Source of the DNA: an uncultured Clostridia bacterium
GTDB taxonomy: Bacteria > Bacillota > Clostridia > Christensenellales > CAG-917
Assembly: GCA_944332815.1 (NCBI GenBank)
Contig: CALVKQ010000004.1
Span: 69,319 to 133,318, forward strand
DNA: 64,000 nucleotides
Reading direction: 5' to 3'
Part shown: positions 10,761 through 40,704 of the stretch, piece by piece
How positions within the stretch are numbered: the stretch's first letter is position 1
Layout of the letters: each line of letters starts with the position of its first letter
Position numbers and translations under genes: made by a program
Notes under the pieces: generated by a model
Databases searched by the model: none
Told to the model about the DNA's origin: nothing
What the model saw: only the letters and a program-made list of their open reading frames with translations

Positions 10761-10813
10761 TCGCGTTCGAGGCGAACGACCGTATTTTTGCGAGGCGAAG
10801 AGCAGGCGCAGGT

Positions 10814-11093: not shown

Positions 11094-11103
11094 TAAAAGC
11101 AAG

Positions 11104-14485: not shown

Positions 14486-14736
14486 GATTTACCTACAAAG
14501 CGGAAGCGATGTCCGCAAACCCTCCGTCCCTTTTTAAGCGAAAAATCTAATCATAAACATTATACTTACCGCGCGCGCGGATGTCAATCGCGGCGGCATA
14601 TGCTTAAAGAAAAAATCCGATTTTTTCAATCGTTGTCCGCGGTGTGCTTTTTGTGGCGGCAAGACTTGAAAAAACATGCCGAAAATGCTATCATCCCATT
14701 GCGTGACATGCCATTTGAGGCAGGCGCTCGGAGAGA

Positions 14737-24325: not shown

Positions 24326-24698
24326 GTTTCACCGTTGTCCCTGATTTAGACCGGAACGGAACCGTTCCGTATCGCGCTGTCCCACATCGACGCGCGCACC
24401 GTTCATTCAGCTTGATTCAAGTCTAACACGGAATATGTCATTTAGTTGTCACAAAAATGTAAAAAAGCGTTCCTCCGCGAATTATGTCCTCGGACGCGCA
24501 GTAAACAGTGGCGTAAGCGCTCCGGTCCGCGGCAACCCGTTTCGGGACGGGTATGTTGCGGCGCGCGACATCTGTTAAGATAATACAATGTGCGTTCAAC
24601 GCTTGACTTTTTTTAAGATAATTTAATAATATAGCGTTAGTCATCATAATAAGACGGGCGCGTGTCGGCGCGCAAAACAAGCTAACAAAAGGTGAAAG

Positions 24699-27665
24699 AT
24701 GCTTAAACTGGTCAATATCACAAAGGAATACAAGACGGAGGAGGAGAGCGTTCTCGCGTTGCGAGGCGTTTCCATCGAGTTCCGCAAGAGCGAATTCGTT
24801 TCCATCCTCGGACCCTCCGGCTGCGGCAAGACCACCCTTCTCAACATCGTGGGCGGGCTGGACCGCTACACGGACGGCGACATACAGGTGGACGGCGTGT
24901 CCACCAAAAAATACCGCGATGAGGATTGGGACACTTACCGCAACAGGCGCATAGGTTTCGTCTTCCAGTCCTACAACCTCATCCCTCATATGACAGTGCT
25001 CAAAAACGTGCAACTCAGCCTCACTCTCGCAGGCGTTCCCAAGGAGGAGGGCAGAGAGAGGGCGTTGGAAGCGCTGCGCAAAGTCGGGCTGGAAAAGCAG
25101 GCGAAGAAAAAGCCTAACCAGATGTCGGGCGGTCAGATGCAGCGCGTCGCGATAGCGCGCGCCCTGGTCAACGACCCCGACATCATCCTCGCGGACGAAC
25201 CCACCGGCGCGCTGGACAGCGAGTCGGGCGTGCAGGTCATGGAGCTGCTCAAAGAGGTCGCGCGCGACAGGCTGGTCGTCATGGTCACCCACAACGGACA
25301 GCTCGCGGACGAGTACAGCACGCGTATCATCAACCTGAAAGACGGTGAAGTGGTGGGCGACACGATGCCTTACGACAGCGCCGCCGAGAGCGCCGCGCAA
25401 GCGAGCGAAATGACGGAAAACGGCGTTCAAACTGCCGAAAACGGTGTTTCAGCCGCAGAAACGGGCAATTACGCGGCATATGACGAAAACGGTATGCCTT
25501 ACGGCGACGGCGAATATTACACCGGCGAGGCAGGCGATTACGCGGCATATGACGAGAACGGCGCGCCCTACGGCGACGGAGCTTATTACGGTGAGAACGG
25601 CGCGCCCTACGGCGACGGGGCATATTACGACGAAAACGCCGCCGCGCAGCAGAGCGCAGAACAGGCGTCCCCCGAGCCTCCCAAAAAGAAGAATATATTC
25701 GCGAGGATAGGGGATAAGATCCGCGCTTTCCGCAAACGCGAGAAGTCCTATATGTCCATAGGCACGGCGGTCAATCTGTCCTGGACCAACCTGCTCAGCA
25801 AGAAGGGGCGCACTTTGCTCACCTCCATCGCAGGCAGCATAGGCATCATCGGCATCGTGGTCGTGCTCGCGCTCTCCAACGGCGTGAACGGTTACATCTC
25901 CGCGCTGGAAGAGAACGCGCTTTCGCAATACCCCATCACCATAAACGACCGCGACGTGTCTTTGCAGAACGTCATGAACACAGTTTTAGGCGGTTCCTCC
26001 GGGGTAGGGGAACAGTATCCCGACAGCGGCGAGCTGGTGGTAGGCGACGTGCTGGGCTCTCTGTTTGCGGAGATGGACGAGATATTCGCCGAAAACGACC
26101 TTAAAACTTTCAAAGCCTACATCGAGGATAACTTCGACGATTCGTTGGGCGTGGTAAAGTACGGCTACGGCACCACTCTCAACATCTACACCGAGGACCC
26201 GAAATCTCCCGATGAAAATTACATGAAGGTCAATCCCTTCACGGACGCCATGGGCTCCTTCCTCCCGACCGAGGGTGACTTCGCCGCGATTACGAGCATG
26301 GCGGAGGCGTTCACCGCGTCCTGGGATCAGATCAGCACCAATCAGGAACTTTTGGAGCGTCAGTACGACGTTGTAGCCGGCAGGTGGCCGGACCAGGATT
26401 CCGCAAACGAGATAATCGTGGTCATGGACAGCTACAACACCATCCCCGACTTCGGTATGTTCATGCTGGGGCTGCGTTCGCAGGACGACCTTGTGAATCT
26501 TATCAACTCCGCGCTCGATAAGGACGATGAGGAAACTCAAAAGCTGTTGGAAGAGTTTTACAAGCCCATCAAGCTGGAAGGGGACGGCGGATTGGTCGGC
26601 AAGAAGTATTACGTCATCACCGACGCGGACTATTTCATCGAAGACGAAAGTTCCTCCTTCGGCTATACCGAAACGGACAGGGGAGCTACGGACAAGGAAA
26701 CCGTGGACGCCGTGTTCGAAGCCAACGGGGTGCAGGAGCTGGAGATAGTCGGCGTCGTGCGTCCCAAACCCGGTGTGACCGTCACCTCCATCAACGGATA
26801 TGTCGGCTACACGGAGGCGCTCACCCTCGCCATGCTGGAAAAGGCGGAGTCCCACCCCATCGTCGAAATGATGAAGGAAGCCGCGCTCTCCATGGCGGCG
26901 GACGATGAGGATAAGGCAAACGGCATCGTCACCGCGGACAATTTCAGAGGCTGGGTATCTCCCGTCGCTCTGAAACAGGCAGTCAGCGTTCCCGGCGCGT
27001 TGTTCGGCGACGAGAAGAAGGTCGTCACGGTGGGCACGCGCTTGGGCAGGGATGATTACGCCGCTTATGTCGCGATAATGCGCGCGGTAGGTGTGGCGGA
27101 TCCTGCCTCGCCGCAGTCCATATCCTTCTACGCTAACTCATTCGACCATAAAGCGGAGATAGAGCAGTTCATACAGACCTACATCGACACCACGGGCAAC
27201 GACTTGAAGTACACCGATCAGCTGGCGATCATGATGGCGTTCGTGGAGCAGCTCAGTTCCACTGTCACGCAGGTGCTGGTGGGCTTCGCGGCGATATCCT
27301 TAATAGTGTCCACCATCATGATAGCCATCATCATCTACACCTCCGTGCTCGAACGCAGGAAGGAGATAGGCGTGCTGCGAAGTTTGGGTGCGCGAAAGAA
27401 GGATATTGCGCGCGTGTTCATTTCTGAGTCCGCCATCCTTGGGGCGTACTCGGGCGCGATAGGCATCGTGGTCGCGGTGGCGTTCTCCTTCGCAGGCAGC
27501 GCGATACTGGCGGCGGTGCTGGGAATAAGCGGACTGATGAGCGTGTCGTGGTGGCAATGTCTTGTGATGTTCGCAGTCAGTGTGGCGCTCAGTATATTGG
27601 CAGGTTTCATCCCGTCGCGCATCGCGTCCAAGAAAGACCCGACAGTCGCGCTCAGGAGCGAATAA
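24699..27665 (+). CDS. Fused ABC transporter: ATPase, Tyr/Gly/Asp-repeat linker, MacB/FtsX-type permease (988 aa); paralog of 11156..14485
   Basis: The N-terminus MLKLVNITKEYK...GPSGCGKTTLLNIVGGLDRYTDGD is nearly identical to the other copy. Also present: MSGGQMQRVAIARA, ILADEPTGALD, RRKEIGVLRSLGARK. Confidence 0.9.
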   Translation: MLKLVNITKEYKTEEESVLALRGVSIEFRKSEFVSILGPSGCGKTTLLNIVGGLDRYTDGDIQVDGVSTKKYRDEDWDTYRNRRIGFVFQSYNLIPHMTVLKNVQLSLTLAGVPKEEGRERALEALRKVGLEKQAKKKPNQMSGGQMQRVAIARALVNDPDIILADEPTGALDSESGVQVMELLKEVARDRLVVMVTHNGQLADEYSTRIINLKDGEVVGDTMPYDSAAESAAQASEMTENGVQTAENGVSAAETGNYAAYDENGMPYGDGEYYTGEAGDYAAYDENGAPYGDGAYYGENGAPYGDGAYYDENAAAQQSAEQASPEPPKKKNIFARIGDKIRAFRKREKSYMSIGTAVNLSWTNLLSKKGRTLLTSIAGSIGIIGIVVVLALSNGVNGYISALEENALSQYPITINDRDVSLQNVMNTVLGGSSGVGEQYPDSGELVVGDVLGSLFAEMDEIFAENDLKTFKAYIEDNFDDSLGVVKYGYGTTLNIYTEDPKSPDENYMKVNPFTDAMGSFLPTEGDFAAITSMAEAFTASWDQISTNQELLERQYDVVAGRWPDQDSANEIIVVMDSYNTIPDFGMFMLGLRSQDDLVNLINSALDKDDEETQKLLEEFYKPIKLEGDGGLVGKKYYVITDADYFIEDESSSFGYTETDRGATDKETVDAVFEANGVQELEIVGVVRPKPGVTVTSINGYVGYTEALTLAMLEKAESHPIVEMMKEAALSMAADDEDKANGIVTADNFRGWVSPVALKQAVSVPGALFGDEKKVVTVGTRLGRDDYAAYVAIMRAVGVADPASPQSISFYANSFDHKAEIEQFIQTYIDTTGNDLKYTDQLAIMMAFVEQLSSTVTQVLVGFAAISLIVSTIMIAIIIYTSVLERRKEIGVLRSLGARKKDIARVFISESAILGAYSGAIGIVVAVAFSFAGSAILAAVLGISGLMSVSWWQCLVMFAVSVALSILAGFIPSRIASKKDPTVALRSE
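25468..25628 (+). repeat. In-frame tandem DNA repeat inside the ABC linker, encoding (D)YAAYDENG(M/A)PYGDG(E/A)YY units
   Basis: attacgcggcatatgacgaRaacgg...ccNtacggcgacgg...tattac occurs at 25468..25520 and at 25537..25589. A shorter third unit lies at 25590..25628. Confidence 0.8.
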
Positions 27666-27817: not shown

Positions 27818-28339
27818 ATGGCTGAAAAAATCAAAAAAACCGTCAAGCCTACCGACAGCAACGTCATGCTGTGTCTGCTGTTCCTCGTCCTCGGCGTGCT
27901 GTTCGTGTGGCAGGGGGCAGGCATCATCGGCACCGCAATGATGATAATCGGCGTCATCCTGACCGTGCTTGGGCTCTTTGAACTCTTCAATCAGAATTGG
28001 ATCATGGGCATCATAGAGGTGATCCTGGGCGTCGCGTTGATAGTCATCGCAGCGACCGTCGGGGCACAGATCATGCTCCTTCTGCTCGGCATCGCCATCC
28101 TGCTCTTTGCCGTGATAGTGTGCGTCCTGGGGTTCAAGAACTTCAAAGGCATGGCGACCGTCGCCAAAGTCCTCTTCATCCTCACCATTCTGCTCGCCGT
28201 CACCGTAGGCGTCCTCTTCATCGTCGCCTACGTCGAGGTCCCCCAAGGTCTGTTCATCGCCATCGGCGCCATAAGCCTTGCCGTCGGAGTGGTGATGTTG
28301 GTGAAGGCTGCGTTGACCAGCGGTCGCAAAACCGTCTAA
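27818..28339 (+). CDS. Multi-pass small membrane protein (DUF308/HdeD-like appearance)
   Basis: 173 aa, almost entirely hydrophobic helices; RBS-like gaggtga lies upstream. Confidence 0.7.
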   Translation: MAEKIKKTVKPTDSNVMLCLLFLVLGVLFVWQGAGIIGTAMMIIGVILTVLGLFELFNQNWIMGIIEVILGVALIVIAATVGAQIMLLLLGIAILLFAVIVCVLGFKNFKGMATVAKVLFILTILLAVTVGVLFIVAYVEVPQGLFIAIGAISLAVGVVMLVKAALTSGRKTV

Positions 28340-29305
28340 ACGGCGCTATTTGGCGCAGAACTTTGTCAACGCCCTTGTCGTGGATGCTCACGTACGTCAA
28401 TGTACGCTCCGCCTCCCGACAAGGGCGTTTTCGCGTTCTGCATCCAAATATCGCCGTTTAGTACAGGGGGAGTTGAAATTATTTTTCCAAACCCTATTCG
28501 AAGACGGGTAAATATCCCATACCCCACGCACACTTATTCGGAGCGTGCTTGATAAATTACTCTCTCATTCAAAGACGTAATTACGCGCCGCTCAGCCAAA
28601 CTTGCACCGTGGGCGAATTTTCGCTCACGCTTGCAAGTCGCGGCGCGTTCAACCCCGTACACGATGCGCACTTATTCGGAGCGGAGCCGCAACAGGCGGC
28701 GACCGTGTGAGTGCCGAGCGCTAGACGAATAGTGCGCCGGCAATGCGCCACTCTCTTCGCGCAGCGGGCGCATTGCAAGCGGCATAACATGGCGGCTCCG
28801 TAAAGGTGCCGTCCTCGGAAGCAATCGTGCGCGAGCGCCGAAGGTTTCCCCCAAAATGGTGGGTTCCCTTTTAAGGGGGAACGATTTTGGGGGAAACCCG
28901 AAGGAAGGGGGCAAACAATACTTAAAGGTATGAGGAATGTCCCCTTTCCCCGAAGGGAAGGAGGGGGGCTGTACTCCCATGTCAGGGGACGCCCCCAATT
29001 AAACTTTACTCCACACATGTACTGGAGTAGAGCGCTCTTTCTTAATTCGGGACAAACGGGGACGGGGCAAAAATGTTCAAATGTGGGCATGCAACCCCAC
29101 ATCTGAACATTTGCGCACCCAAACCCCACAAGTGGGTACCCCTGCTTTACCCCGTCCCCGTTGTGTCCCAACGCGTTCCTGTGCCGGTATAACGTGAAGC
29201 ATGAGTGTGCGTACCTGAACCCGACACTCATTATTCGAAGACGTAATCGCTCACTTACTCGGAGTGCGCTTGATCAATAATTCTCTTTTCAAAGGCGGAA
29301 TAAAG
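28336..29305 (+). repeat. Modular hairpin-repeat locus B: stop-codon-proximal 126-nt palindrome, ~75-nt unit, ACGCGCCGC hairpin, 250-nt core, G-rich module, a large branched hairpin and a terminal unit
   Basis: About 970 nt between convergent genes with no credible ORF. It is co-linear with 39807..40644 and partly with 10381..10760 (inverted). Confidence 0.8.
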
Positions 29306-29329
29306 CCCCATCCCTCAACGACGACGGGG

Positions 29330-30193
29330 TCAGTGTCTGGCTTCGTCGGGGTGAGGGCCGAGGCGGCCTATTCGGGATACGGCGTCGAGAGCGGCGAGGT
29401 CGTCAGCGTCGAGGGAGAAGGAAAAGACGTCGGCGTTTTCGCGTATGCGCGACGGTGTTGCGGATTTGGGGAGGGGGAGCACCCCGTGTTCCAGGCAAAA
29501 ACGCACCAGCACCTGCGCTTCCGTCCTGCCGTGTTTTTGAGCCACTGCGGCGAGGACGGGATGCCCGAAAGCCTTGCCGCGGCAGAGGGGCGCCCAGCCT
29601 TCGACGACGATGCCGTTAGCCTGCGAGAAGGCGACGGCTTCCGTTTGATCGGCGTCGGTGAAACCGAAGTGGAACTCCACCTGATTTACCATAGGAGGCA
29701 CTTTACATTCACCTAAAAGTACGTTCAAGTGTGTTTTCAGGCAATTGCACACGCCGATGGCACGCACGCGTCCGTCGGCATAAAGACGTTCGAGCGCGCG
29801 CCACGTGTCAAGGAAACGTGAGGGGTATTCCGCCTTATAGTCCTTGGTGATAGGCCAATGCACAAGGTAGAGGTCAAGGGTGTCTAGCCCGAGTTTTTTT
29901 GCGGAGGCGTCGAAGGCGGCGAGAGTGGAGTCGTAGCCTTGGTGGGTGTTCCACACTTTGGTGGTGACGAATATCTCTTCGCGCGGCAAGCCGCTTTCGG
30001 ACACGGCTTTTCCGACGCTTTCCTCGTTGAAGTAAAACTCCGCGGTGTCGATGTGGCGATAGCCTGCGGCAAGGGCGGCGAGCACGCTCTCGGTGCAGAC
30101 GTCGCCGTCGGGGGTCTTATAGGTGCCGAAGCCCACGCAGGGGATGCGCACTCCGTTAGAGAGGGTGAAGCAGTCGGTGAGAGAGTTGTGCAT
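29330..30193 (-). CDS. Aldo/keto reductase (2,5-diketo-D-gluconate reductase-like)
   Basis: FTLSNGVRIPCVGFGTYK...AGYRHIDTAEFYFNEESVG...LDLYLVHWP. Confidence 0.9.
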   Translation of the reverse strand: MHNSLTDCFTLSNGVRIPCVGFGTYKTPDGDVCTESVLAALAAGYRHIDTAEFYFNEESVGKAVSESGLPREEIFVTTKVWNTHQGYDSTLAAFDASAKKLGLDTLDLYLVHWPITKDYKAEYPSRFLDTWRALERLYADGRVRAIGVCNCLKTHLNVLLGECKVPPMVNQVEFHFGFTDADQTEAVAFSQANGIVVEGWAPLCRGKAFGHPVLAAVAQKHGRTEAQVLVRFCLEHGVLPLPKSATPSRIRENADVFSFSLDADDLAALDAVSRIGRLGPHPDEARH

Positions 30194-30201
30194 GAGTCAC
30201 C

Positions 30202-31110
30202 TCATTTTGCGGTCTTCAACCCCGGGATGGGGACGTTGATGAAGCGAGGTCTTTCCGCGCCGACGAAGAAGACTGCCAGCGCTCCGGGACCGGCGTGCGC
30301 TCCGACGAGGTAGCCCACGTTGCAAAATTCTATTTTAATATCGGGGATGGCTGCGGTTATTTTTTCCGCCAGCTGTTTTGCGCCGGCGAGGTCGTCGCCG
30401 TGCTCCACCAATATTAAGTCATTGAGTTCGGGCTTATAAAATTTGACCACCTGTTCGGTGATGGCGGAGAGGGCTTTCTTTTTGCCCATCACTTTGAGGA
30501 GGGGCATTATTTTGCCGTAGTGGTTGAGTTCGAGCAGGGGTTTTATGCCAAGCATGGTCCCCACCGCCGCTTCCAGTCGGCTCAACCTGCCGCCGCGGTA
30601 AAGGGTGTTCAGGTCCTCTACGATGAAGAAGTGGTGATAGTTCATCCTGTCCGCTTCCAGTTTATCGGCGATGGCGTCCAGGGTCATGCCGGCGTCGCGC
30701 ATTTTCAGGGCGTCGTGCACCATGAGCCCCTGACCGCCGCATCCGGAGAGGCTGTCCACCACGCGGATGCTGCCGTCGCGGTATTTCATGGTGAGTTCCT
30801 TTGCCGCGGCGGAAACGCCTGCGGCGCTGCCGCTCATGCCCGAAGAGAAGGAGATGTGCAGTATGTCGCAGCCTTCTTTGAGCAGCCGTTCGAAGGTGTG
30901 TATGGCGGCGTAGGAGGAGGTCTGCGAAGTGGACGCGACGGCTCCCGCGCGCAGTTTGTCGTAAAACTCGTGATAGGTGGGCAGTTCGCCGTCGAAATGA
31001 TCCTTTCCGTCCAGCGTGAAGGGCATGGGCAGCACTTCCACGCCGTGTGCGGCGAAGAAACCTTCCGGCATATCCGCCGCCATATCCGTGGTGATAGCTA
31101 TATTTCTCAT
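30202..31110 (-). CDS. DegV-family fatty-acid-binding protein
   Basis: MRNIAITTDMAADMP...TSQTSSY...HISFSSGMSGS matches the DegV pattern. Confidence 0.85.
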   Translation of the reverse strand: MRNIAITTDMAADMPEGFFAAHGVEVLPMPFTLDGKDHFDGELPTYHEFYDKLRAGAVASTSQTSSYAAIHTFERLLKEGCDILHISFSSGMSGSAAGVSAAAKELTMKYRDGSIRVVDSLSGCGGQGLMVHDALKMRDAGMTLDAIADKLEADRMNYHHFFIVEDLNTLYRGGRLSRLEAAVGTMLGIKPLLELNHYGKIMPLLKVMGKKKALSAITEQVVKFYKPELNDLILVEHGDDLAGAKQLAEKITAAIPDIKIEFCNVGYLVGAHAGPGALAVFFVGAERPRFINVPIPGLKTAK

Positions 31111-31241
31111 AAGCGCTCCTTTTGGGTAATGATAGCACCGCGATGCGGAATTTTCAACATCTGTCTTGCATTTGACAAAATTAGTCCTCTTCTTTCACAT
31201 TCCGTCGCGCGCCGCGTCGCGCGCAAGGTTAAACTGCGGTC

Positions 31242-31997
31242 ATGAGAAAGATAGTCGTGACTTCGGGTAAGGGGGGCGTGGGCAAGACCACCGTCACCGC
31301 TTCGCTGGGCAGATGCCTTGCGGACATGGGATATGCCGTCGTTATGGTGGACGCCGACGTCGGGCTCAACAACCTGGACGTGGTGACGGGCGTGGACAGC
31401 AGGGTGGTGTACGACATAGGCGACGTGCTGTCCGGCAAATGTCACGTTTTCCAGGCGTTGGTGCGCGACAGCGAGAGCAGTGCGCGCATACTGCCGTCCG
31501 CAGGCGGAGGAGGTGAGATGTCCGCGCAGGCGTTCAGAGGGGTGATAGACTCCGTCACCGACTGTGATTTTCTTCTCATCGACTGTCCTGCCGGCATAGA
31601 GAACGGGTTTCACAGGGCGGTTTCGGCGGCGACGGAAGCCATCGTCGTCACCACGCCGTCGGCGTCCGCCATCCGTGACGCGGACAAAGTCATCACTTTG
31701 CTTTCCGCCTATCGGTTGGAGGATGTGTCGCTTGCGGTGAACCGTCTGCGCCCGGATATGGCGGCGCGCGGAGAAATGATGGACGCGGAGGATATCGCGA
31801 GGCTGCTGCATACGCCGGCGATAGGCGTCATCCCCGAGGACGATTGCATCACCATATACCAGCAACTGGGGCGCGTGCCTTCGTTCGCGCTCTCGGAAAA
31901 GGCTTTCCTGCTGTTTGCGGATAACGTGGCGAACCGCACGAAAAAATGCGCCGAACTGCGCATGACGGGCAGAAGGAGGAGAAGGAGATGGCTGTAA
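31242..31997 (+). CDS. minD: Septum site-determining ATPase MinD
   Basis: MRKIVVTSGKGGVGKTTVTASLGRCLADMGYAVVMVDADVGLNNLD has the deviant Walker A. Confidence 0.85.
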   Translation: MRKIVVTSGKGGVGKTTVTASLGRCLADMGYAVVMVDADVGLNNLDVVTGVDSRVVYDIGDVLSGKCHVFQALVRDSESSARILPSAGGGGEMSAQAFRGVIDSVTDCDFLLIDCPAGIENGFHRAVSAATEAIVVTTPSASAIRDADKVITLLSAYRLEDVSLAVNRLRPDMAARGEMMDAEDIARLLHTPAIGVIPEDDCITIYQQLGRVPSFALSEKAFLLFADNVANRTKKCAELRMTGRRRRRRWL

Positions 31998-32254
31998 GAC
32001 CTGCAAGGCTCATGGAAGAGAGGATGAAAGAGATGTTGCTGCGCGACAAGGCGTCCGTGAACGCAGGGTTCGTGTCCGCGCTCACGAGCGACCTCGCGCG
32101 CGTTGCGGAGGACTACTTCGTCTGCCCGGGCAGGGCGGAGGTCACGTTGGAGCGGACGGAGGACGGCTCCGTTCTGGTGGGGATATCCTTTTCGGCGCGC
32201 GGCGTCAAAGCCTTTGCCACCACGGAGGAACTGCCCGTGCCCGAAACGGAATAA
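31988..32254 (+). CDS. minE: Probable cell-division topological specificity factor MinE
   Basis: MAVRPARLMEERMKEMLLRDKASV...AEVTLERTEDGSVLVGISF resembles clostridial MinE (ERLK..L..D.., then a beta-hairpin domain). It overlaps the minD stop and has RBS ggaggagaaggag. Confidence 0.6.
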   Translation: MAVRPARLMEERMKEMLLRDKASVNAGFVSALTSDLARVAEDYFVCPGRAEVTLERTEDGSVLVGISFSARGVKAFATTEELPVPETE

Positions 32255-32294
32255 TTTTCTCGCCGCCCGAATAGGTTTTAAGGCGAGGTGAATC

Positions 32295-32555
32295 ATGGAG
32301 TTTGACCAAACCAAAAAAATCGAAGTCGAAGTCAGCGAAAACGTCATAGCCGAAAACGAGGTCGGAGTGCGCAGGGAGAAAAAGTCCGGGGTGCGTTCCT
32401 TCCTGAAAAAGGTGGATCCTCTCGATCTCGCACTGGTGCCCGTGGTGATAGGGGTGTTCATCTCACTGGGCTTCCTGTTCGCCGGGCTGCTCGGGCAGAG
32501 CTCCGTCAGCGCGGCGGTATCCGAGGTGGGACAGGCGGCGGCTGCCGTGCTGTGA
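32295..32555 (+). CDS. Small single-pass membrane protein, translationally coupled to the M50 protease gene
   Basis: 86 aa with TM segment LALVPVVIGVFISLGFLFAGLL. Its stop overlaps the next start (ATG at 32552, TGA at 32553..32555). Confidence 0.55.
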   Translation: MEFDQTKKIEVEVSENVIAENEVGVRREKKSGVRSFLKKVDPLDLALVPVVIGVFISLGFLFAGLLGQSSVSAAVSEVGQAAAAVL

Positions 32556-33496
32556 TGCGCATCTCCGTCCATCCGCTCTTTTACGCGCTTGCCGTGCTGC
32601 TCGTGTTGTTCGGGCAGGCGGCGGCGTTCGTCTGGACTTTTGTCGCCGTATGCCTGCACGAACTGGGGCACGCGGCGGCGGCGCGTCTTCGCGGTTACGT
32701 CCCAAAGACGCTCACTCTCATGCCGTACGGCGCGATGATGAGTGCGGAGGAAGAGATGGACGGGCGCTCCTGCGTGCTGGTGGGGCTCGCCGGTCCTGCC
32801 GCCAATCTGCTTTGCGCCGCCCTGATACTCGCGTTGTGGTGGGTCTTTCCTGCCGCATATCCTTTCACGCGCGTGTTTTTGGCAGCCAATCTCGCGATCG
32901 CGCTTTTCAATCTGCTCCCCGTCTATCCGCTGGACGGTTCCAGAGTGCTGACGGGGCTTGCGTCCAACCGCATGAAAGCCGTTAAACGTATGCAGGCGGC
33001 AGGCATCGCGGTGAGCGTGGCGCTCTTTGTCCTGTTCATCATTTCCTTCATCATGAAAGCCGCCGCGTTTACCCTCGGGATAACGGCGGTATTCCTGTTT
33101 TCGGGGGCGGCGTTCGGGGCGAAGCGCGACACCTATGCGAGCGTGCTCGCGGCAGGTTGCAAAAACTACCGCGCAGGCGTGTGCGAACGGAGCGTGATAG
33201 TGAGTGCGGACACCCCTCTCGTCAGATTGTTCGGGTACGTGGACGGGCGCAACGTCACGCGTTTCAGAGTGGTGGAGGAACACGCCGACGGCGCCCCTCC
33301 CGACGAGGTATGCGTGCTCACGGAAGGAGAATTGCGCGGCATCGCGAAAGAGGGCAGACTTTCGCGCACCTTGCGCGAATGCGTCGCGGCAGGGAAGGGC
33401 TCCTCGCCCGAACTCCCTCCGTCCGCCATCTCCCTTTCCGAAAACGATGGCGGAGCGAACGATGCCGACCATGTCCGGCATGCCAGACCGAAATAA
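32552..33496 (+). CDS. M50 site-2 metalloprotease, SpoIVFB-like
   Basis: HExxH (LHELGHAAAA) and the NLLPVYPLDGSRV motif. Its position downstream of min genes matches Bacillus/Clostridium spoIVF. The last 5 codons and the stop lie inside the MITE-like element. Confidence 0.8.
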   Translation: MMRISVHPLFYALAVLLVLFGQAAAFVWTFVAVCLHELGHAAAARLRGYVPKTLTLMPYGAMMSAEEEMDGRSCVLVGLAGPAANLLCAALILALWWVFPAAYPFTRVFLAANLAIALFNLLPVYPLDGSRVLTGLASNRMKAVKRMQAAGIAVSVALFVLFIISFIMKAAAFTLGITAVFLFSGAAFGAKRDTYASVLAAGCKNYRAGVCERSVIVSADTPLVRLFGYVDGRNVTRFRVVEEHADGAPPDEVCVLTEGELRGIAKEGRLSRTLRECVAAGKGSSPELPPSAISLSENDGGANDADHVRHARPK

Positions 33497-33760
33497 TACG
33501 AACCAGGTTCAGCGCCGCCGATTTCCGCCTGAACCGCGTCATTCGCCTTGCTAATACAGTCAAGTATTAGCTGCAGCGACTTCCTTGCTCAGCCAAAAAT
33601 CGGCGGGCGCGGAACTGCTCGCACCTCAGAGCAAAAGATTTTCGGATGATGTTGCACGGGCGGAACGCAGGCAATAGTATATATATTGGCAAGGTTCGGC
33701 TGTGCAAAAGCGCCGAAAAGAATTGCTCCGAGGCTGGTTCGTATTATTCCGGTCTGGCAT
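33480..33760 (+). mobile_element. MITE-like non-autonomous element, copy 2 (281 bp)
   Basis: ATGCCAGACCGAAATAATACGAACC ... GGTTCGTATTATTCCGGTCTGGCAT; co-linear with 10814..11093. Confidence 0.7.
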
Positions 33761-33810
33761 TGGGGAAAAGCAGTAAAACCGAGGGGAAAAACACGCCGTT
33801 TTCGACACGG

Positions 33811-33839
33811 TTGACAGAGTTATATATTTGTTTTAGAAT
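33811..33839 (+). promoter_or_regulatory. Sigma-70-type promoter for the glucokinase gene
   Basis: TTGACA (33811..33816), 17-nt spacer, TAGAAT (33834..33839). Confidence 0.55.
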
Positions 33840-33889
33840 ATCCCGTGCAAGAGTGTGCGCGGCGCGCGCACGCGGCAGGGAGGACGTGT

Positions 33890-34840
33890 ATGCTTTACAT
33901 AGGCGTTGACATAGGCGGCATGAGCGTCAAAGCCGGTCTGGTGGACGAAAAAGGGAAGATCCTCTTGAAAGACACCGTCGTCACCAGGGCATCCGCACCG
34001 GCGGAGGAGATAGTCGCGGACATCGCGGCGCTCGTGCGTTCGGTGGCGGAACGCGGCGGAGCGGAACTTTCCTCGCTCGGCGGCATAGGCGTGGGCTCTC
34101 CCGGGTCGGTGGACGACGCGGAAGGCGTGATACGTTACAGCTGCAACATCAATTTTGTCAAGACTCCGTTCGTCAGGCTGCTGAGCGATATGCTGGGCGT
34201 GAAAAACGTCAGGATAAGCAATGACGCCAACTGCGCGGCGCTGGGCGAAACCATGTTCGGAGCCGGGCGCGGCGCGCGCAACAGCGTCACGGTCACGCTG
34301 GGCACGGGCGTGGGCACGGGCATAGTCGCAGACGGCAGACTGCTCACGGGCAACAGGTCGGCAGGCGCGGAGGGCGGACACGTCATCATCAAAGCCGGCG
34401 GCGAAGTGTGCGGCTGCGGCAAGAGAGGCTGCTTTGAGGCGTATGCCTCCGCAACGGCGCTCATGCGTCAGACGGCAAGAGCCGCGGAACGTCACCCCGA
34501 CAGCCTGCTCGCTCGCCTTGCCAAGGAGCAGGGTATAGACGGAAAAACCGCGTTTATCGCTGCAAAACAAGGGGATAAAGTCGCAAAACGTGTGGTTTCG
34601 ACTTATATCCGTTATGTCGGGACGGGGCTCGTCGGATTTGCGAACGTGTTCTATCCCGAGGTGTTCATAATAGGCGGAGGCATCTCCAAAGAGGGGGACG
34701 CGCTCATCCTGCCATTGCGTCGTTTCGTGCGCAGGAATGCCTATGGTGCGGAGTTCAATCCGCCCATCGACGTGGTGGCTGCTACTCTAGGCAACGATGC
34801 CGGCGTCATAGGCGCCGCCGCGCTCGTTATGGAGCGTTGA
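33890..34840 (+). CDS. glk: ROK-family glucokinase
   Basis: MLYIGVDIGGMSVKAGLVDEKG... and the Zn motif GGHVIIKAGGEVCGCGKRGCFEAYAS. Confidence 0.88.
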   Translation: MLYIGVDIGGMSVKAGLVDEKGKILLKDTVVTRASAPAEEIVADIAALVRSVAERGGAELSSLGGIGVGSPGSVDDAEGVIRYSCNINFVKTPFVRLLSDMLGVKNVRISNDANCAALGETMFGAGRGARNSVTVTLGTGVGTGIVADGRLLTGNRSAGAEGGHVIIKAGGEVCGCGKRGCFEAYASATALMRQTARAAERHPDSLLARLAKEQGIDGKTAFIAAKQGDKVAKRVVSTYIRYVGTGLVGFANVFYPEVFIIGGGISKEGDALILPLRRFVRRNAYGAEFNPPIDVVAATLGNDAGVIGAAALVMER

Positions 34841-34857
34841 ACGCCGAATAACTTTTG

Positions 34858-36624
34858 ATGGAAAATTTAAGGAATAGATTGCTCCCCCTGCTTTCGCGGG
34901 CGGAGAAGCCCTCCCGTTATACGGGCGGAGAGTGGAACGCCGTCGTCAAAGAGCATCCGCGCGCGCGTTTCTGCCTCTGTTTTCCCGACCTTTACGAGAT
35001 AGGCATGAGCAACCTCGGGATGCAGATCTTGTACTCCGAGATAAACTCGCATGAGGATCTTGCGTGCGAGCGCTGTTACGCCCCTGCGGAGGATATGGCT
35101 GCGCTGTTGCGCGAAGCCGCTCTGCCGCTCACTTCCCTTGAAAGCGCGATCCCTCTCAAAGATTTTGACGTACTGGGATTTTCCGTACAGTTCGAGCTGC
35201 TTTACACGGGCATATTGTATATGCTGGACCTTGCAGGCATCCCCTTCCGCGCCGCGGACAGAGGGGAGGAGTGGCCCATACTGCTCGCAGGCGGACCCTG
35301 CGCCGTCAATCCCGAACCCTATGCCGACTTTTTCGATTGCGTGGTCATAGGCGAAGGTGAGGGCGTGGACGTCGCCGTACTGGAACTCGCGGCGGAGGGC
35401 AGAGAGAAGGGGTGGAGCAAGCGCGAGATATTGGCGCGCGCCTCGCGGCTCACGGGCGTTTACGTGCCTTCCGTTCACAAAGAGGGCGAGAAGGTGGTCA
35501 AGGCGGTGTTCCGCGATTTCGAACACGCTCCCTATCCCGTCCGTCCCGTCGTCGCCAACACGGAAGCCGTGCACGACCGCGCGGTCATAGAGCTGTACCG
35601 CGGCTGTGCCAGCGGATGCCGCTTCTGTCAGGCAGGTTACTATTACCGCCCCATACGCGAGCGTTCCCCCGAGAAGTGCGCCGAGCAGGCGAAGGAGATA
35701 GTGCGGAACACCGGGCACGGCGAGATAGCCATGTGCTCGCTGTCCACGGGGGATTATACCGGGCTGCACGCGCTCATGGACGGACTGCGCGGTTTCGTGC
35801 ACGAAAACAAAGTGAACCTTTCGCTGCCCAGCCTCAGGCTCTCCTCATTCAGCGGCGACATCGCCCAGGAGTCGCGCAGGAGCTCGTTGACTTTCGCGCC
35901 GGAAGCAGGCACGCAGCGGCTGCGCAACGTGATCAACAAAAACGTGACGGACGAGGAGATAGACAACATCGCCCGAGCTTTCGAAGTGGGCTATGACAGC
36001 GTGAAATTATATTTCATGCTCGGGCTCCCCACCGAAACGGACGAGGACATAGCAGGTATAGCCGCCATCTGCGCGCGGCTGCGCGAACTTTACTACAAGA
36101 CGCGCGGCAAACGCGGTCCCAACATCTCCGTGTCCTGCGCGGTGTTCATCCCCAAACCCTGCACTCCCTTCCAGTGGGAGGCGCAGATAAGTTTTTCCGA
36201 GATGCTCCGCAAGCAGAATTATCTGCGCGGACTGCTCCGCCGCATAAAGGGAGTGACCTTCTCCTGGCACGGTGCGGAGTCGTCCGTGTTGGAGGCGGCT
36301 CTCGCGCGCGGCGACAGGCGGCTGTCCTATGTCATAGAGCGCGCTTACGCTTTGGGCGCCAAGTTCGACAGCTGGTCGGAGAAGTTCGATTGGGAGGCGT
36401 GGCAGCGCGCTTTCGCGGACGAGGGCATTGATATGGAGGAGTACACCGGCGAGTGGGACACTGCTGCGGAACTGCCGTGGGATTTCATCGACACCGGCGT
36501 GACCAAGCGTTATCTGCTCGCGCAGCGCAAGCTGGCTTACGAGGGCGTGACCACCCGTTCGTGCAGAGAAGGGTGCAACGGCTGCGGCGCAAACAAACTG
36601 GGGAGGTGCACGATAGAATGGTGA
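34858..36624 (+). CDS. B12-binding-like radical SAM protein (TIGR03960-type)
   Basis: CxxxCxxC cluster CASGCRFCQAG. The size and its pairing with the following DUF2344-type gene are characteristic. Confidence 0.8.
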   Translation: MENLRNRLLPLLSRAEKPSRYTGGEWNAVVKEHPRARFCLCFPDLYEIGMSNLGMQILYSEINSHEDLACERCYAPAEDMAALLREAALPLTSLESAIPLKDFDVLGFSVQFELLYTGILYMLDLAGIPFRAADRGEEWPILLAGGPCAVNPEPYADFFDCVVIGEGEGVDVAVLELAAEGREKGWSKREILARASRLTGVYVPSVHKEGEKVVKAVFRDFEHAPYPVRPVVANTEAVHDRAVIELYRGCASGCRFCQAGYYYRPIRERSPEKCAEQAKEIVRNTGHGEIAMCSLSTGDYTGLHALMDGLRGFVHENKVNLSLPSLRLSSFSGDIAQESRRSSLTFAPEAGTQRLRNVINKNVTDEEIDNIARAFEVGYDSVKLYFMLGLPTETDEDIAGIAAICARLRELYYKTRGKRGPNISVSCAVFIPKPCTPFQWEAQISFSEMLRKQNYLRGLLRRIKGVTFSWHGAESSVLEAALARGDRRLSYVIERAYALGAKFDSWSEKFDWEAWQRAFADEGIDMEEYTGEWDTAAELPWDFIDTGVTKRYLLAQRKLAYEGVTTRSCREGCNGCGANKLGRCTIEW

Positions 36625-37271
36625 TCCTGCGTTATTCAAGGCTCGGGACCAGACGTTTCGTGTCCCATATAGACGTGCTGCGCGACTTTGCCAGGATAGT
36701 CAGGCGCGCGGACATCCCCGTGGCGTATTCGGGGGGCTTCAACCCTCACGCATTATTGTTTTTCGCGCCGCCCACTCCCGTCGGGATAGGCTCTGTGGCG
36801 GAGTATGTGGCGATCGACACCCCTCTTTCTCCCGAGGAAGTCATGGCGGCTTTCAACTCCGCGGTGACGGAGGAGATGCGCGCGACGGAGGCGTTTTCGA
36901 CAGCGCGCAACCCCAATCTCGCAGGCAGGATATGCGCCGCGGAGTACGTCTTTCCCTTTGCCGCCGATGCCTACGACTTTTCGCGTGGGCTCACGCTCGA
37001 CTACATGAAAAAGGGTGAGCGCGTCACGGAGAGCGCCGGGGACAGGATATTGTCCGTCGGAGAGAGGGAGGGCAGACTGCTGCTCACTCTCGCGTGCGGC
37101 AACGTGACTTTGCGCGCAGACAGGGTGTTCGACGCGCTCAAAAGGGAGCTCGTGGCGGCGGCGGACGTCAGCGACGTGATGAAGACGGAGCAGTTCATCC
37201 GAGCGGATGTCGGGCTGCTCGCGGTCAAAGCGGCGCTCGCGGCGGAAAACGCCGCACAAGTCGGAAAATAA
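36618..37271 (+). CDS. Radical-SAM-associated protein (TIGR03936/DUF2344-type)
   Basis: MVILRYSRLGTRRFVSHIDVLRDFARIVRRADIPVAYSGGFNPH; it overlaps the upstream stop. Confidence 0.8.
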   Translation: MVILRYSRLGTRRFVSHIDVLRDFARIVRRADIPVAYSGGFNPHALLFFAPPTPVGIGSVAEYVAIDTPLSPEEVMAAFNSAVTEEMRATEAFSTARNPNLAGRICAAEYVFPFAADAYDFSRGLTLDYMKKGERVTESAGDRILSVGEREGRLLLTLACGNVTLRADRVFDALKRELVAAADVSDVMKTEQFIRADVGLLAVKAALAAENAAQVGK

Positions 37272-37289
37272 TTTTTTTACGGTATAGAT

Positions 37290-38729
37290 ATGAAACGTCT
37301 TTTCATCGATTACAATCCGTACTTCGTCAGAGCGGCGCTCGCGGAGGACGGAGAGCTCGTCGAATTCGGCGTGGAACACGTCACCGAACGCAGCCACGTC
37401 GGCAACATCTACAAGGGCAAAGTGGAGAATGTGCTGGACGGCATGAAGGCGGCGTTCGTCAACATCGGCTTGGAGCGCAACGGGTTCCTGTATGTCGGCG
37501 ACATGCCTCGTGAGGCAGGAAAAGTTTCCCCCGGCGACATAGTGATGTGTCAGGTCGTAAAAGAGCAGATGGGCGCAAAAGGAGCGCGGCTCACCACCGA
37601 CGTCACCCTGCCCGGCTATACGGTCGTGTTGTTGCCGACGGGAGGGTTCAGAGGGGTTTCGCGCAAGATCGAAGACGAGAACGCGCGTGCACATCTCGAA
37701 GAACTGCTTTCCTCCGTCTGTCCGCAGAACATGGGGTTTATCGTGCGTTCTGCGGCGATAAAAGTCCCCGATGAGAAAATAATCGCCGAATTCGAGTCGC
37801 TTGTGGCGATGTGGGAACGCGTGCGCGAACGCTACGAGCGTTCCGCCCCCGGGGCTGTCATTTTCAGGGAGGCGCAGCTGCTCGAACGCATCATCCGCGA
37901 CAACTTTTCCGAGCAGGTGGACAAGATAGTCGTCAACGAACCTTTCCTCGCGGAGAGGCTTGCGGAGAGGATGCGCGACGTTGAGGTGGAGTACTATTCA
38001 GGGCAGCGCAACATCTTCCGCCATTACGGGCTTTCCGCGCAGATAGACAAACTTGCGGACAGGAAGGTGACCATAGAAGGGGGCGCGTACCTTGTCATCG
38101 ACCGCACGGAAGCGCTCACCGTCATCGACGTCAACACGGGCAGGTTCGTGGGCAGCAACGACCTCGAAGACACCGTTTACAAGACCAATCTCGCCGCGGC
38201 GTCCGAAGTGGCAAGGCAGCTGCGCGTCAGAAACATCAGCGGTATAGTCATCGTGGACTTTATCGATATGCAGTCGGATGCGCATAAGCGCGCCGTCGTG
38301 GATAAACTCAAAGAGGAACTGCGTAAGGACCGCCTCAAAACTTCCGCCGTTTGCATGACGGGGTTGGGGCTCGTGGAACTGACGCGCAAGCGCACGCGGT
38401 TGTCCGCGGACACTTTCATGCTGGACGAGTGCGAGCATTGCGCAGGCGGATACGTCATGTCGGCTACGCATCTGGCGCTAAAACTCCGCGACGATATGAT
38501 CGATCATTCCATGGCGCACGAGTGCCCGTCGATGATAGTCAGGGTGAACCCAGTCATCATGGAACATATGTTCCGTTTCAGGATACTTGCGCGCGAGGTC
38601 GCAGGGATATGGAAGGGAAAGAGGGTGTACCTCATCCCCGACCTCACTCTCCCTCGCGACGGCGCGGTCATCGAGGGCAGTTCGGAGAAGGTGCTCACGC
38701 TGCCTCCCGAGGCGAGGCTGGCATATTGA
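37290..38729 (+). CDS. rng: Rne/Rng-family ribonuclease (RNase G-like)
   Basis: S1 domain VGNIYKGKVENVLDGMKAAFVNIG and catalytic region GIVIVDFIDM. Confidence 0.88.
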   Translation: MKRLFIDYNPYFVRAALAEDGELVEFGVEHVTERSHVGNIYKGKVENVLDGMKAAFVNIGLERNGFLYVGDMPREAGKVSPGDIVMCQVVKEQMGAKGARLTTDVTLPGYTVVLLPTGGFRGVSRKIEDENARAHLEELLSSVCPQNMGFIVRSAAIKVPDEKIIAEFESLVAMWERVRERYERSAPGAVIFREAQLLERIIRDNFSEQVDKIVVNEPFLAERLAERMRDVEVEYYSGQRNIFRHYGLSAQIDKLADRKVTIEGGAYLVIDRTEALTVIDVNTGRFVGSNDLEDTVYKTNLAAASEVARQLRVRNISGIVIVDFIDMQSDAHKRAVVDKLKEELRKDRLKTSAVCMTGLGLVELTRKRTRLSADTFMLDECEHCAGGYVMSATHLALKLRDDMIDHSMAHECPSMIVRVNPVIMEHMFRFRILAREVAGIWKGKRVYLIPDLTLPRDGAVIEGSSEKVLTLPPEARLAY

Positions 38730-38819
38730 CAATGTGGGAAGACGCAACAGGGCTTGCGGTTTGCGGCGCGATGTGCTATCATCATTGCGTCGGCATTGCC
38801 GCATAATAAGGGGTGGAGC

Positions 38820-39806
38820 ATGAAAGCCTGGCATATAGAGAATCTGGAACGTATCAAGCTCGTCGAGAGCGTCCTTCCCAAAAAGGAAGGGGAGGTCAAG
38901 CTCAGGATATCCAAAGTGGCGATATCTTCGACGGACTTTTCCTATTTCGCTTCGGATTCCCCCAACAAGAACGCCGCGCTCACCGTTCCCGGGCATTCCG
39001 CGGTGGCGTATATGTCCGAAGACGACGCCGATCTGGTGTTGAAAATGGGCACGCGCGTCGTGGTGAGCCCTTTCGTGATGAGAGAGGAACACGGTGTGAA
39101 AAAAGTCAGCGTGCTGGGAGTGGACAGCGACGGGTTGCTCTCCGACTTCGCTTCCGTGCCTGCCGAGAACGTTTACGCGCTCCCCGACGGCATCCCCGAC
39201 GACGAAGCCATATTCGCGGAGTATATCGCGCTCGGCAACAACGTCCTCAACAGCCTGGAAGCAGGCAAAGGCGATTTTGTCGTGATAGTGGGCGCAAGCA
39301 CGCTCGGGCTCATACTGGCGCAGCTCGCGCTGTACTATCAGATGATCCCCGTCCTCGTGGACCTTGACGCCGAAAAGCTCGCGCTCGCGGCAAGCTGGGG
39401 GGTATATTACACCCTCAATCCCACTTACGATAATCTGGAACGCCGCGTGGAAGAGATAACGGGCGGCAGGATGGCGGAGTCCTCCGTCTACGTCGGCGAC
39501 GGCGTGCCATTCAACATGGCGCTGCGCCTCGTCAAAGATAAAGGCGAAGTCGTGGTGGCAGGCTACTCCGTACGCTCCGGGCACACCATCGACGTCAGTG
39601 TGGTGCTGCAAAAACAGCTCAAACTCATCGGCGTCGCGGACGGCTACGGCGAAATGTCCTCCGCAATAAACCTGCTCGCCAACCGCATCATCAAAACCGA
39701 CGGGCTCATCAACTCTCGCATCGACTTCTCCGAAGTGCCCGAAATGGTCGTGCAATGTGCGGAGTATCCTTATCAGTATAATAAGATAGTCGTCAACATC
39801 GATTAA
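38820..39806 (+). CDS. Medium-chain dehydrogenase/reductase (alcohol dehydrogenase-like) protein lacking the usual catalytic-zinc Cys
   Basis: MKAWHIENLERIKLVE...GHSAVAY...VVIVGASTLGLILAQLA (Rossmann fold). It has SSTD where CGTD is typical. RBS aggggtggag lies upstream. Confidence 0.75.
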   Translation: MKAWHIENLERIKLVESVLPKKEGEVKLRISKVAISSTDFSYFASDSPNKNAALTVPGHSAVAYMSEDDADLVLKMGTRVVVSPFVMREEHGVKKVSVLGVDSDGLLSDFASVPAENVYALPDGIPDDEAIFAEYIALGNNVLNSLEAGKGDFVVIVGASTLGLILAQLALYYQMIPVLVDLDAEKLALAASWGVYYTLNPTYDNLERRVEEITGGRMAESSVYVGDGVPFNMALRLVKDKGEVVVAGYSVRSGHTIDVSVVLQKQLKLIGVADGYGEMSSAINLLANRIIKTDGLINSRIDFSEVPEMVVQCAEYPYQYNKIVVNID

Positions 39807-40644
39807 CTAAACGCCGCTATTTGGCGAATAGCTTTGTCAGCCTCGCATCTCCGACCGCTTATGTACGAAAGTACACCGCGCGTCCGGATATGCGAGGCTT
39901 TCGCGCTCTTCATCCAAATATCGGCGTTTAGACCGTTGGGGGGTATTTTTCTAAACCCTATTCGAAGACGGAACAATGCCCCAATTCCTCACGCGCGCTT
40001 ATCGGGAGCGTGCTCAAATACACTCTACACTCATTCGAAGAAAGAACTATATATATCCCCATACTCCACGCGCACTCTTTCGGAGCGTGCTTAATTAAAT
40101 TTATCCTTCATTCGAAGACGGAATAACGCGCCGCTCAGCCAAACTTGCACCGTGGGCGAGCATCGCCCATGCTTGCAAGTCGCGGCGCGTCCCAACCCCG
40201 TACACGACGCGCACTTATTCGGAGCGGAGCCGCAACAGGCGGCGACCGTGTGAGTGCCGAGCGCTAGACGAATAGTGCGCCGGCAATGCGCCACTCTCTT
40301 CGCGCAGCGGGCGCATTGCAAGCGGCATAACATGGCGGCTCCGTAAAGGTGCCGTCCTCGGAAGCAGTCGTGCGCGAGCGCCGAAGGTTTCCCCAAAAAT
40401 GGTGGGTTCCCTTTTAAGGGGGAACGATTTTGGGGGAAACCCGAAGGAAGGGGGCAAACAACACTTAAATGTTAGGAGGATTGTCCTCTATTCCGAGTGG
40501 GGGAGGAGTCCCGAATGGGGCTCCCCACAAAATGCATGCATTTTGTGGGGTCCCCGGGAAGGAGGGGGCACAATACTCCCATGTCAGGGAACGCGAAACC
40601 CCCATTAAACTTTATTTTACACGCCCCCATGTCAGGGGACTGCC
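39807..40644 (+). repeat. Modular hairpin-repeat locus C: 125-nt palindrome, two ~75-nt units, ACGCGCCGC hairpin, 250-nt core, G-rich module with a perfect 28-nt palindrome
   Basis: About 840 nt between convergent genes with no credible ORF; co-linear with 28336..29305. Confidence 0.8.
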
Positions 40645-40676
40645 CTAAAACAAAAGCCGCTCTGGGGAGCGGCTTT
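40645..40676 (-). terminator. Intrinsic terminator of galT
   Basis: On the minus strand: AAAGCCGCTC-ccca-GAGCGGCTTT followed by TGTTTTAG. Confidence 0.7.
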
Positions 40677-40704
40677 CGGGAGTCGTTGTTTCGGTGGCGG
40701 AGCC

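Follow-up and report, generated by a model that had tools for sequence, protein, structure and literature searches.

Structured non-coding repeats in mosaic arrays at gene 3' ends of a narrow clade of uncultured Clostridia

The 64,000-nt stretch of DNA analysed here (hereafter the window) is part of contig CALVKQ010000004.1 (positions 69,319 to 133,318) from an uncultured Clostridia genome, and contains two almost identical non-coding sequences, copies A and B, to which an earlier note made from the letters alone had drawn attention. Each copy occupies an intergenic gap of ~0.9–1.0 kb between convergent genes: copy A is flanked by a gene for a 173-aa protein and by an aldo-keto reductase (AKR) gene, copy B by genes for a Zn-ADH-type dehydrogenase and for GalT. 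The gene neighbours confirm the placement between convergent 3' ends given in the note, and what was called a membrane protein upstream of copy A is the 173-aa protein, which has no Pfam match. By direct comparison, positions 28669–28918 and 40212–40461 differ by exactly the two substitutions in 250 nt that had been counted before, at 28824 (A/G) and 28852 (C/A). These 250-nt bounds mark how far near-identity between A and B extends, not where the element itself begins and ends. The near-identical block measures 280 nt (28650–28929 versus 40193–40472; 5 mismatches, 98%), and the repeat unit, which we call the core or type-1 element, spans 28675–28923 on the + strand in copy A (from TTCGGAGCGGAGCCGC to GGGGGCAAACAATACTT) and 40218–40466, also on the + strand, in copy B. 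As set out below, A and B are two paralogues of a non-coding multi-copy family limited to a narrow clade of uncultured Clostridia; its arrays turn over between very close strains, and its copies are homogenised within genomes.

The two copies are direct repeats 11,543 nt apart and are embedded in a wider, modular homology that runs from 28336 to ~29016 in array A and from 39807 to ~40650 in array B. Identity between the arrays is 72% across the first 240 nt, which hold a leading long hairpin, and 92% across 28509–28963, and whole modules are inserted or deleted, some blocks being present in a single copy only; the stronger divergence of the flanking modules reported earlier is thereby borne out. 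Throughout the family, the core is never solitary and always accompanied by other modules, the arrays being mosaics that fill gaps of 0.8–1.6 kb at gene 3' ends.

When the genome collection was first scanned for exact matches, a 23-mer peculiar to the window subfamily of cores gave 0, being too specific a pattern. Relatives were reached via a spurious antisense open reading frame (ORF) that gene callers had predicted in another assembly: its translation, used as a protein query, led to 18 'protein' clusters (P0001–P0018), whose contigs supplied diverged DNA copies of the core in unrelated contexts. The 20-mer TTGCAAGCGGCATAACATGG, invariant in all homologues so recovered, was scanned against 185,579 species-representative genomes and found in 69 stretches, 68 of them in four uncultured Clostridia metagenome-assembled genomes (MAGs), with ~21 copies in CASDRL01, ~23 in CALWAF01, ~21 in CALVTS01 and ~4 in the fragmented CAAEDU01; the 69th match is a chance hit in a Planctomycetota genome. 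These are minimum copy numbers, as repeats are collapsed in MAGs and only exact 20-mers were counted; many of the matches are located at contig ends. The copy count across genomes, a check suggested in the note, hence shows that the core is not confined to two copies, with over 60 homologues situated in unrelated contexts. The window-type variant, too, has a third context (locus L024), and the spurious ORF products P0011 and P0014 suggest two more.

A collection of metagenome contigs held only two real matches to the 20-mer, one of them from human gut. Core patterns including the 20-mer had 0 matches in viral contigs, and array A had none in plasmid and phage collections; a 15-mer from the short units described below matched viral contigs 13 times, all of which were rejected as chance. 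An invariant 18-mer was found neither in the literature searched nor in one paper's supplement. The Rfam comparison, likewise proposed earlier, matched no known family: Rfam 15 at the gathering threshold gave 0 hits in the window and 0 in 146 kb of 15 related loci, and at E <= 10 array A yielded only chance matches to miRNA-type hairpins.

The core is non-coding. Among 42 aligned homologues, variable columns are distributed over the codon phases as 31/31/25, i.e. without codon periodicity, and indels of 1, 2 and 3 nt number 63, 9 and 1, respectively. On both grounds we rejected the antisense ORFs as proteins, and the earlier judgement that there is no credible ORF, only antisense ones, stands on this larger sample. 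These ORFs are artefacts, yet they are called as genes in other assemblies. In public protein collections, 18 clusters of 'hypothetical proteins' (138–203 aa, no Pfam domain) are antisense translations of the core repeat, and related members among P0001–P0018 differ by frameshifts.

Sixty-three distinct core copies were aligned, of which the 42 clean ones, copy A and 41 homologues, constitute the alignment (A3) used for the consensus fold and the strand test. The unit is about 250–300 nt long, starts with TTCGGAG(T/C)GGAGCCGC and ends in GGGGG-N-AACAATACTY, usually followed by CCATGTCAGRGGAC. RNAalifold predicts a consensus of 67 pairs in 10 helices, with a 5-bp helix between the two ends closing the fold. 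Standard pairs are present in 99.4% of cells, compared with 42–51% when the partners are slid by 1–3 columns, and double-sided changes are seen in 7 pairs and 35 cells, compared with 0–2 in the slid controls. Covarying pairs are found in helices 1, 4, 7 and 8; those of helix 8 change from UA to CG in seven cases, from AU to GC in 14 and from UA to CG in eight, and helix 4 changes from GC to CG precisely in the window subfamily. Variation is concentrated outside the helices (column entropy 0.12 in paired and 0.45 in unpaired columns, p = 1e-9), and both differences between A and B within the 250 nt also fall in predicted unpaired columns. Divergence is low, and helices 3, 5 and 6 are invariant in the alignment. 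Helices 5 and 6 and a 33-nt centre, GCGGGCGCATTGCAAGCGGCATAACATGGCGGC, do not vary at all across species; they are therefore uninformative about structure and imply constraint on the sequence itself.

In most copies the 5' start is followed by an arm (P2) composed of GCCGC, a 7-nt bulge YCA(G/C)CCAA, a 7-bp stem, a small internal loop, an apical stem-loop and GCGGC. MAFFT did not align this arm consistently; its 25 sequence variants in 56 copies nevertheless adopt one identical predicted fold; the 7-bp stem comes in four versions, all fully complementary, and the apical stem shows complete swaps. In the window subfamily (A, B and L024) the arm has shrunk to GCCGC-AACAG-GCGGC, with AACAG as the loop, and a free-standing P2-type arm ('module C'; 28584–28647, + strand; GCCGC, bulge TCAGCCAA, stem-loop, GCGGC) lies ~30 nt upstream of the core. 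The same arm is inside the core in most other genomes and forms the 5' end of a second type of element (type 2, see below).

The fold is specific to the + strand. Its consensus energy is -93.5 kcal/mol, compared with -72.8 kcal/mol on the - strand, and the single-sequence minimum free energy is lower on the + strand in 39 of the 42 copies. G-U cells outnumber A-C cells by 301 to 8, seven pairs toggle between G-C or A-U and G-U, and the loop of helix 7, which occurs as GUAAA, GCAGA, GUGGA, GUGAA and GUAGA, keeps the pattern G-N-R-R-A. Altogether, the core keeps a strand-specific multi-helix fold that is backed by covariation, and its description in the note as packed with self-complementarity holds. 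As for the helices listed there, GCAATGCGCC/GGCGCATTGC (invariant) and GGTTTCCCCCAAAAT/ATTTTGGGGGAAACC (three covarying pairs) are family-wide, whereas GGAGCCGC/GCGGCTCC and CACTtATTCG/CGAATAGTG occur in the subfamily only. The latter two long-range helices, GGAGCCGC/GCGGCTCC and CACTTATTCG/CGAATAGTG, were rejected as parts of the common fold; outside the window subfamily they show mismatches or uncompensated variation.

All 77 distinct core copies are intergenic. Both neighbours were called for 43 of them, with 25 copies between convergent genes, nine in tandem sense, six in tandem antisense and three divergent; these counts are approximate, since genes in the related loci were called with a simple ORF filter based on GC3. 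The orientation of the core shows no bias with respect to the local gene majority (42:34) or to GC skew (40:37), both of which are rough proxies for replication direction in loci of 8–20 kb. Promoter- and terminator-like matches in five loci were at chance level and revealed no promoter or terminator of the core's own. In copy B, the core lies beyond the canonical intrinsic terminator of galT (40647–40680, - strand; GCCGCUC-CCCA-GAGCGGC, then UUUUGUUUU), which stands between the galT stop codon and the array.

Comparison of strains reveals how quickly the arrays change. The AKR protein of the window is encoded in identical form by ten contigs from different samples, yet the arrays downstream of AKR differ. 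Those of L001 and L008 match the window; L004 has a core with a B-like tail and is devoid of a 134-nt insert resembling a MITE (miniature inverted-repeat transposable element), of which L003 has only half; and L006, L002 and L007 contain two type-2 elements in place of the core, L006 reaching all the way across the gap between AKR and module A. At orthologous gaps the core may be flipped, as in the GalT gap (window and L081 versus L029) and the AKR gap (window versus L046), and in L029 it is inverted relative to the flanking modules. At the gap orthologous to a third window locus, locus C, L031 carries a truncated core in place of the window's type-2 element. Truncation or nested mini-hairpins are seen in some copies; 5'-truncation as a sign of retroposition was considered and dismissed, most of the apparently truncated BLAST hits being full copies interrupted by such mini-hairpins.

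Identity among cores is 97.8% (CALVTS) or 96.3% (CALWAF) within a genome and 81–88% between genomes, orthologous positions included; among the three window-type copies it is 90–99%. Since copies are far more alike within than between genomes, the 98–99% identity shared by A and B is normal for this family.

The arrays also coincide with breaks in gene order and in assemblies. In the region of a related long-read assembly that corresponds to window positions 28340–40700 (L029, 9300–12600), the gene for the 173-aa protein, a single array and galT are adjacent, and the 11.5-kb block between the two window arrays (AKR, DegV, MinD-like, ROK, radical SAM, RNase G and dehydrogenase) is found elsewhere in that genome; synteny thus breaks at the arrays. 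Short-read contigs of other samples (L002–L010, L109 and L110) end 141 nt after galT or 0.1–1.3 kb after AKR, i.e. at or inside arrays.

Several further modules make up the arrays. The first, module A, is a near-perfect hairpin of ~125 nt, at 28336–28461 in array A (-74.4 kcal/mol, z = -9.0; the TAA stop codon of the upstream gene is in its base) and at 39807–39931 in array B (-69 kcal/mol, z = -6.5; the base holds the TAA stop codon of the dehydrogenase gene), and its inner stem shows compensatory differences between the two arrays. With the two window copies and 32 further ones in loci L036–L104, the stop codon of a gene ends -2 to +4 nt from the first base of module A in 26 of 34 distinct copies. 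The stop codon of the neighbouring gene is part of the module's terminal inverted repeat (cTAAACGG... or cTGAAAGG...). Hence module A either targets stop codons or provides them, or it persists at such sites only.

Module A is followed in array A by a short unit of family D3 with the hairpin CACGC-ACACTTATTCGGA-GCGTG (28494–28570, + strand). Array B has two such units (~39950–40041 and ~40024–40118), which together with a P2-type arm (40127–40190) occupy 39950–40193 on the + strand. Short units with the hairpin CACGC-ACTTATTCGGA-GCGTG are ~77 nt each in the window and occur in CALVTS as 2–6 tandem units of 33–38 nt. We rejected an interpretation of the latter as a type III toxin-antitoxin (ToxI-like) or CRISPR-like system, as neither a toxin gene nor a cas gene is adjacent and spacers are absent. 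Downstream of the core lie one or more 3' tail modules per array: one in array A (28924–29016, + strand), ending in GGAGGGGGGCTGTACTCCCATGTCAGGGGAC, a terminal motif common to type-1 and type-2 elements, and two in array B (40467–40650, + strand), with a nested mini-hairpin GGGGCTCCCCACAAAATGCATGCATTTTGTGGGGTCCCC at 40518–40556. Array A closes on the - strand with the last short unit, a weak hairpin and CUUUAUU directly after the AKR stop codon (29215–29332), the sole part of the array that is conserved in all strains.

Type-2 elements are ~360 nt long and have the 5' arm (GCCGC-TCAsCCAA-hairpin-GCGGCG) and the 3' end (GGGGG.ACAATACTCCCATGTCAGGGGAC) of the core, with an unrelated interior. A solitary type-2 element lies in the window at locus C (10400–10760, - strand). 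Type 2 is present in 54 of 68 core-bearing loci, where it usually faces the core, and L006 has two copies (1140–2300). The usual order in CALVTS is gene, A>, units>, core>, <type 2, <A, gene, and a frequent one in CALWAF is <type 2, core>, <A.

Other elements are nested in or adjoin the arrays. The ~134-nt MITE-like insert of array A (29047–29180) contains an inner hairpin and is bounded by 22-nt terminal inverted repeats (GGGACAAACGGGGACGGGG...); other strains lack it at this locus or have it truncated or halved, and it occurs in other genomes as well (L025, L072, L079, L092 and L097). A 284-nt MITE with 26-nt terminal inverted repeats ATGCCAGACCGGAATAATACGAACC is found twice in the window (10811–11094 and 33477–33760; 88–91% identical); one copy adjoins the type-2 element of locus C, and no obvious target-site duplication was seen. 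Mini-hairpins of two kinds nest inside other modules, cores included (L035 at 240–335, L067, L081, L092 and L098; L036, L039, L044, L077 and L087). The first kind is a ~45-nt unit, CCGAAGGT-yAGCGATTG...CAATCGCG, in 1–3 tandem copies flanked on either side by CCGAAGGT in what resembles a duplication; the second is GGGGTCCCCGCCGAAAGTATTTTCGGTGGGG, a relative of which lies at 40518–40556 in the window. Elsewhere in the window, two paralogous genes for fused ABC-ATPase/FtsX-permeases (11159–14488, - strand, and 24696–27662, + strand) are in opposite orientation and 74% complementary over 687 nt, and the second of them has a short in-frame tandem repeat of ~69 and 39 nt (25453–25628).

With these data in mind, we consider the core to be, more likely than not, a non-autonomous, selfish or near-neutral repeat that is propagated or homogenised in trans, because its copy number, its polymorphism, its orientation flips, the nesting, the decayed copies and the existence of two types with shared ends fit such an element. 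Its many dispersed copies, its presence/absence polymorphism and its lack of coding capacity are what is expected of non-autonomous elements. Of the two alternatives that had been offered for the repeat, the conserved core of a non-autonomous mobile element is accordingly the one that fits best, given the copy number, the strain polymorphism, the flips and the lack of a coding partner nearby. A function supplied in trans may copy or homogenise the core among arrays that already exist, either by transposition via a single-stranded intermediate that would need the hairpins, or by gene conversion between arrays. Its persistence at gene 3' ends could be due to insertions there harming no gene, and the dispersed, near-identical copies might act as substrates for rearrangements.

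Several observations weigh against this interpretation. All-against-all clustering of ORFs in ~700 kb of flanking DNA returned only orthologues and spurious ORFs, and no recurrent protein neighbour; Pfam scans of 18 window proteins revealed no transposase or recombinase domain, and none of the ORFs in two unusually long gaps, read by eye only, resembles a transposase. An inverted-repeat scan of the core detected internal hairpins only and no terminal inverted repeats, its ends pairing over the 5 bp of helix 1. In 34 copies we saw neither a clean empty site nor a constant direct repeat that would indicate target-site duplication, the flanks being themselves repeat modules. Cores are present at orthologous gaps in up to four species (GalT, ADH and Band_7 loci), which could mean that they are old elements of vertical descent, possibly functional, whose uniformity is maintained by gene conversion. 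Finally, the strand-specific fold, the GNRRA loop and the invariant 33-nt centre are as expected of a functional RNA.

These last points lead to a possible, though rather unlikely, alternative, namely a functional structured RNA of a new class, be it a read-through 3' untranslated region (3'-UTR) or insulator or a small RNA, each copy of which would act on neighbouring genes or bind a common protein. It would account for a fold that is strand-specific and rich in G-U pairs and half-compensatory changes, for covariation in helices 1, 4, 7 and 8 and the P2 arm, for the maintained G-N-R-R-A pattern, for variation gathered in loops, for a centre that is invariant across species, for the retention of cores at orthologous gaps of several species and for the location of copies at gene 3' ends. 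However, signals for transcription initiation or termination do not rise above chance in the five loci, orientation to the facing gene 3' end is not fixed (nine sense and six antisense in tandem settings) and flips at orthologous loci, and copy B is separated from galT by that gene's own terminator. Also, presence or absence of the core differs among strains with identical flanking proteins, truncated and insertion-bearing copies occur, and the distribution is very narrow. An independent non-coding RNA gene should have its own promoter and terminator and a fixed orientation, neither of which the core displays; the other suggestion of the earlier note, a discrete non-coding RNA gene or 3'-UTR-derived RNA, therefore lacks support.

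The propagation in trans assumed for a selfish repeat could, in a narrower form that we regard as doubtful, be due to an HUH/Y1-type single-strand transposon, the modules being its non-autonomous derivatives (IS200/IS605 palindrome-associated elements, PATEs, or REP/RAYT-like) and the core perhaps a relic of an omega-RNA scaffold. IS200/IS605-derived PATEs and omega-RNA/HEARO resemble the core in having no inverted repeats and no evident duplications, hairpins near the ends and a strand-specific structure of 150–300 nt. In the family described here, conserved bulged hairpins near both ends are common to the two element types, no duplication is evident, and the mosaic arrays recall those of BIMEs (PMC2817692). 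The core differs in that no tnpA, tnpB or iscB is adjacent to it, no Y1, TnpB or IscB gene being found beside any copy examined, and in that the Rfam library, which includes HEARO/IscB RNA, has no match to it. Such elements typically show a replication-linked orientation bias, none of which is seen with the rough proxies described above, and have an autonomous tnpA/tnpB copy, none of which was found beside the repeats; the units are much larger than REPs, and no recurrent small protein that could be a RAYT was found next to the repeats in the ~25% of each MAG covered.

There is an outside chance that the core is instead the structured RNA or single-stranded DNA part of an undescribed mobile or RNA-guided system. 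Possible variants are a bacterial SINE-like RNA copied in trans, or an orphan RNA serving as scaffold or guide for a nuclease or recombinase whose gene lies elsewhere in these genomes. If so, the strand-specific fold and the invariant 33-nt centre would be the recognition surface.

A simple recent segmental duplication or gene conversion of only the two window loci, which would agree with direct repeats of 98–99% identity 11,543 nt apart and with the two outer genes being adjacent around a single array in L029, is excluded as a sufficient explanation and has next to no probability left, given the more than 60 homologues in unrelated contexts, the window-type variant in L024 and, as P0011 and P0014 suggest, in two more contexts, flanking modules only 72–92% identical with whole-module indels, and near-identical paralogues as the rule in every genome examined.

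The preferred reading, a non-autonomous repeat, places the core in the company of known extragenic repeats. It resembles REP/BIME, BOX/RUP/SPRITE and MITEs in being extragenic, folded, modular, species-specific and parasitic-looking, and is a member of none of them. REP/BIME of Proteobacteria, which are mobilised by RAYT transposases (PMC2817692, PMC3116915), are likewise extragenic, multi-copy and hairpin-forming, and build mosaic arrays of several motifs in either orientation; concentration at gene 3' ends, species-specific variants and absence of coding content are further points in common. However, REPs measure 20–40 nt and usually exceed 100 per genome, compared with a multi-helix unit of 250–300 nt and ~20 per genome here, and BIMEs alternate REP orientation regularly, whereas the present arrays are stereotyped but irregular. 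Nor are our short units tagged, alternating palindromes: they have no constant GTAG or CGTC tag and, at 33–38 nt, stand in direct tandem with the stems CACGC/GCGTG, GACG/CGTC and CACG/UGUG.

The pneumococcal repeats BOX (boxA-boxB(n)-boxC), RUP and SPRITE are closer in host, being found in Firmicutes. They too (PMC3049150) are modular with variable internal subunits, have extensive predicted secondary structure, are confined to one species group, are read as parasitic and give rise to spurious ORFs in large elements. No shared sequence or module order is recognised, although no direct comparison with BOX sequences was made, and BOX elements are shorter. The paper reports slow transposition of the pneumococcal repeats in its comparisons, whereas the arrays described here vary among strains with identical flanking proteins. 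MITEs (Correia/NEMIS, ERIC, bcr1 and others; PMC3184786) are, like the core, small, non-autonomous, intergenic, multi-copy and foldable, and true MITE-like elements with terminal inverted repeats (284 nt and 134 nt) are nested in the same arrays. The core differs from these neighbours (10811–11094 with 26-nt and 29047–29180 with 22-nt repeats) in having only its 5-bp closing helix instead of terminal inverted repeats, in showing no detectable target-site duplication, and in being strand-specific, not a symmetric palindrome.

In summary, our analysis describes a previously unannotated repeat family of uncultured gut Clostridia, in which a strand-specific module of ~290 nt is joined by a second type of element that shares its ends, by a long hairpin overlapping stop codons and by nested mini-hairpins. 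Its arrays change faster than the neighbouring proteins; they break metagenomic assemblies, yield spurious ORF calls and mark synteny breakpoints. Masking the family in annotation and using it for strain typing are practical applications. For the biology of these bacteria, the arrays represent a Firmicutes counterpart to the BIME/REP systems.

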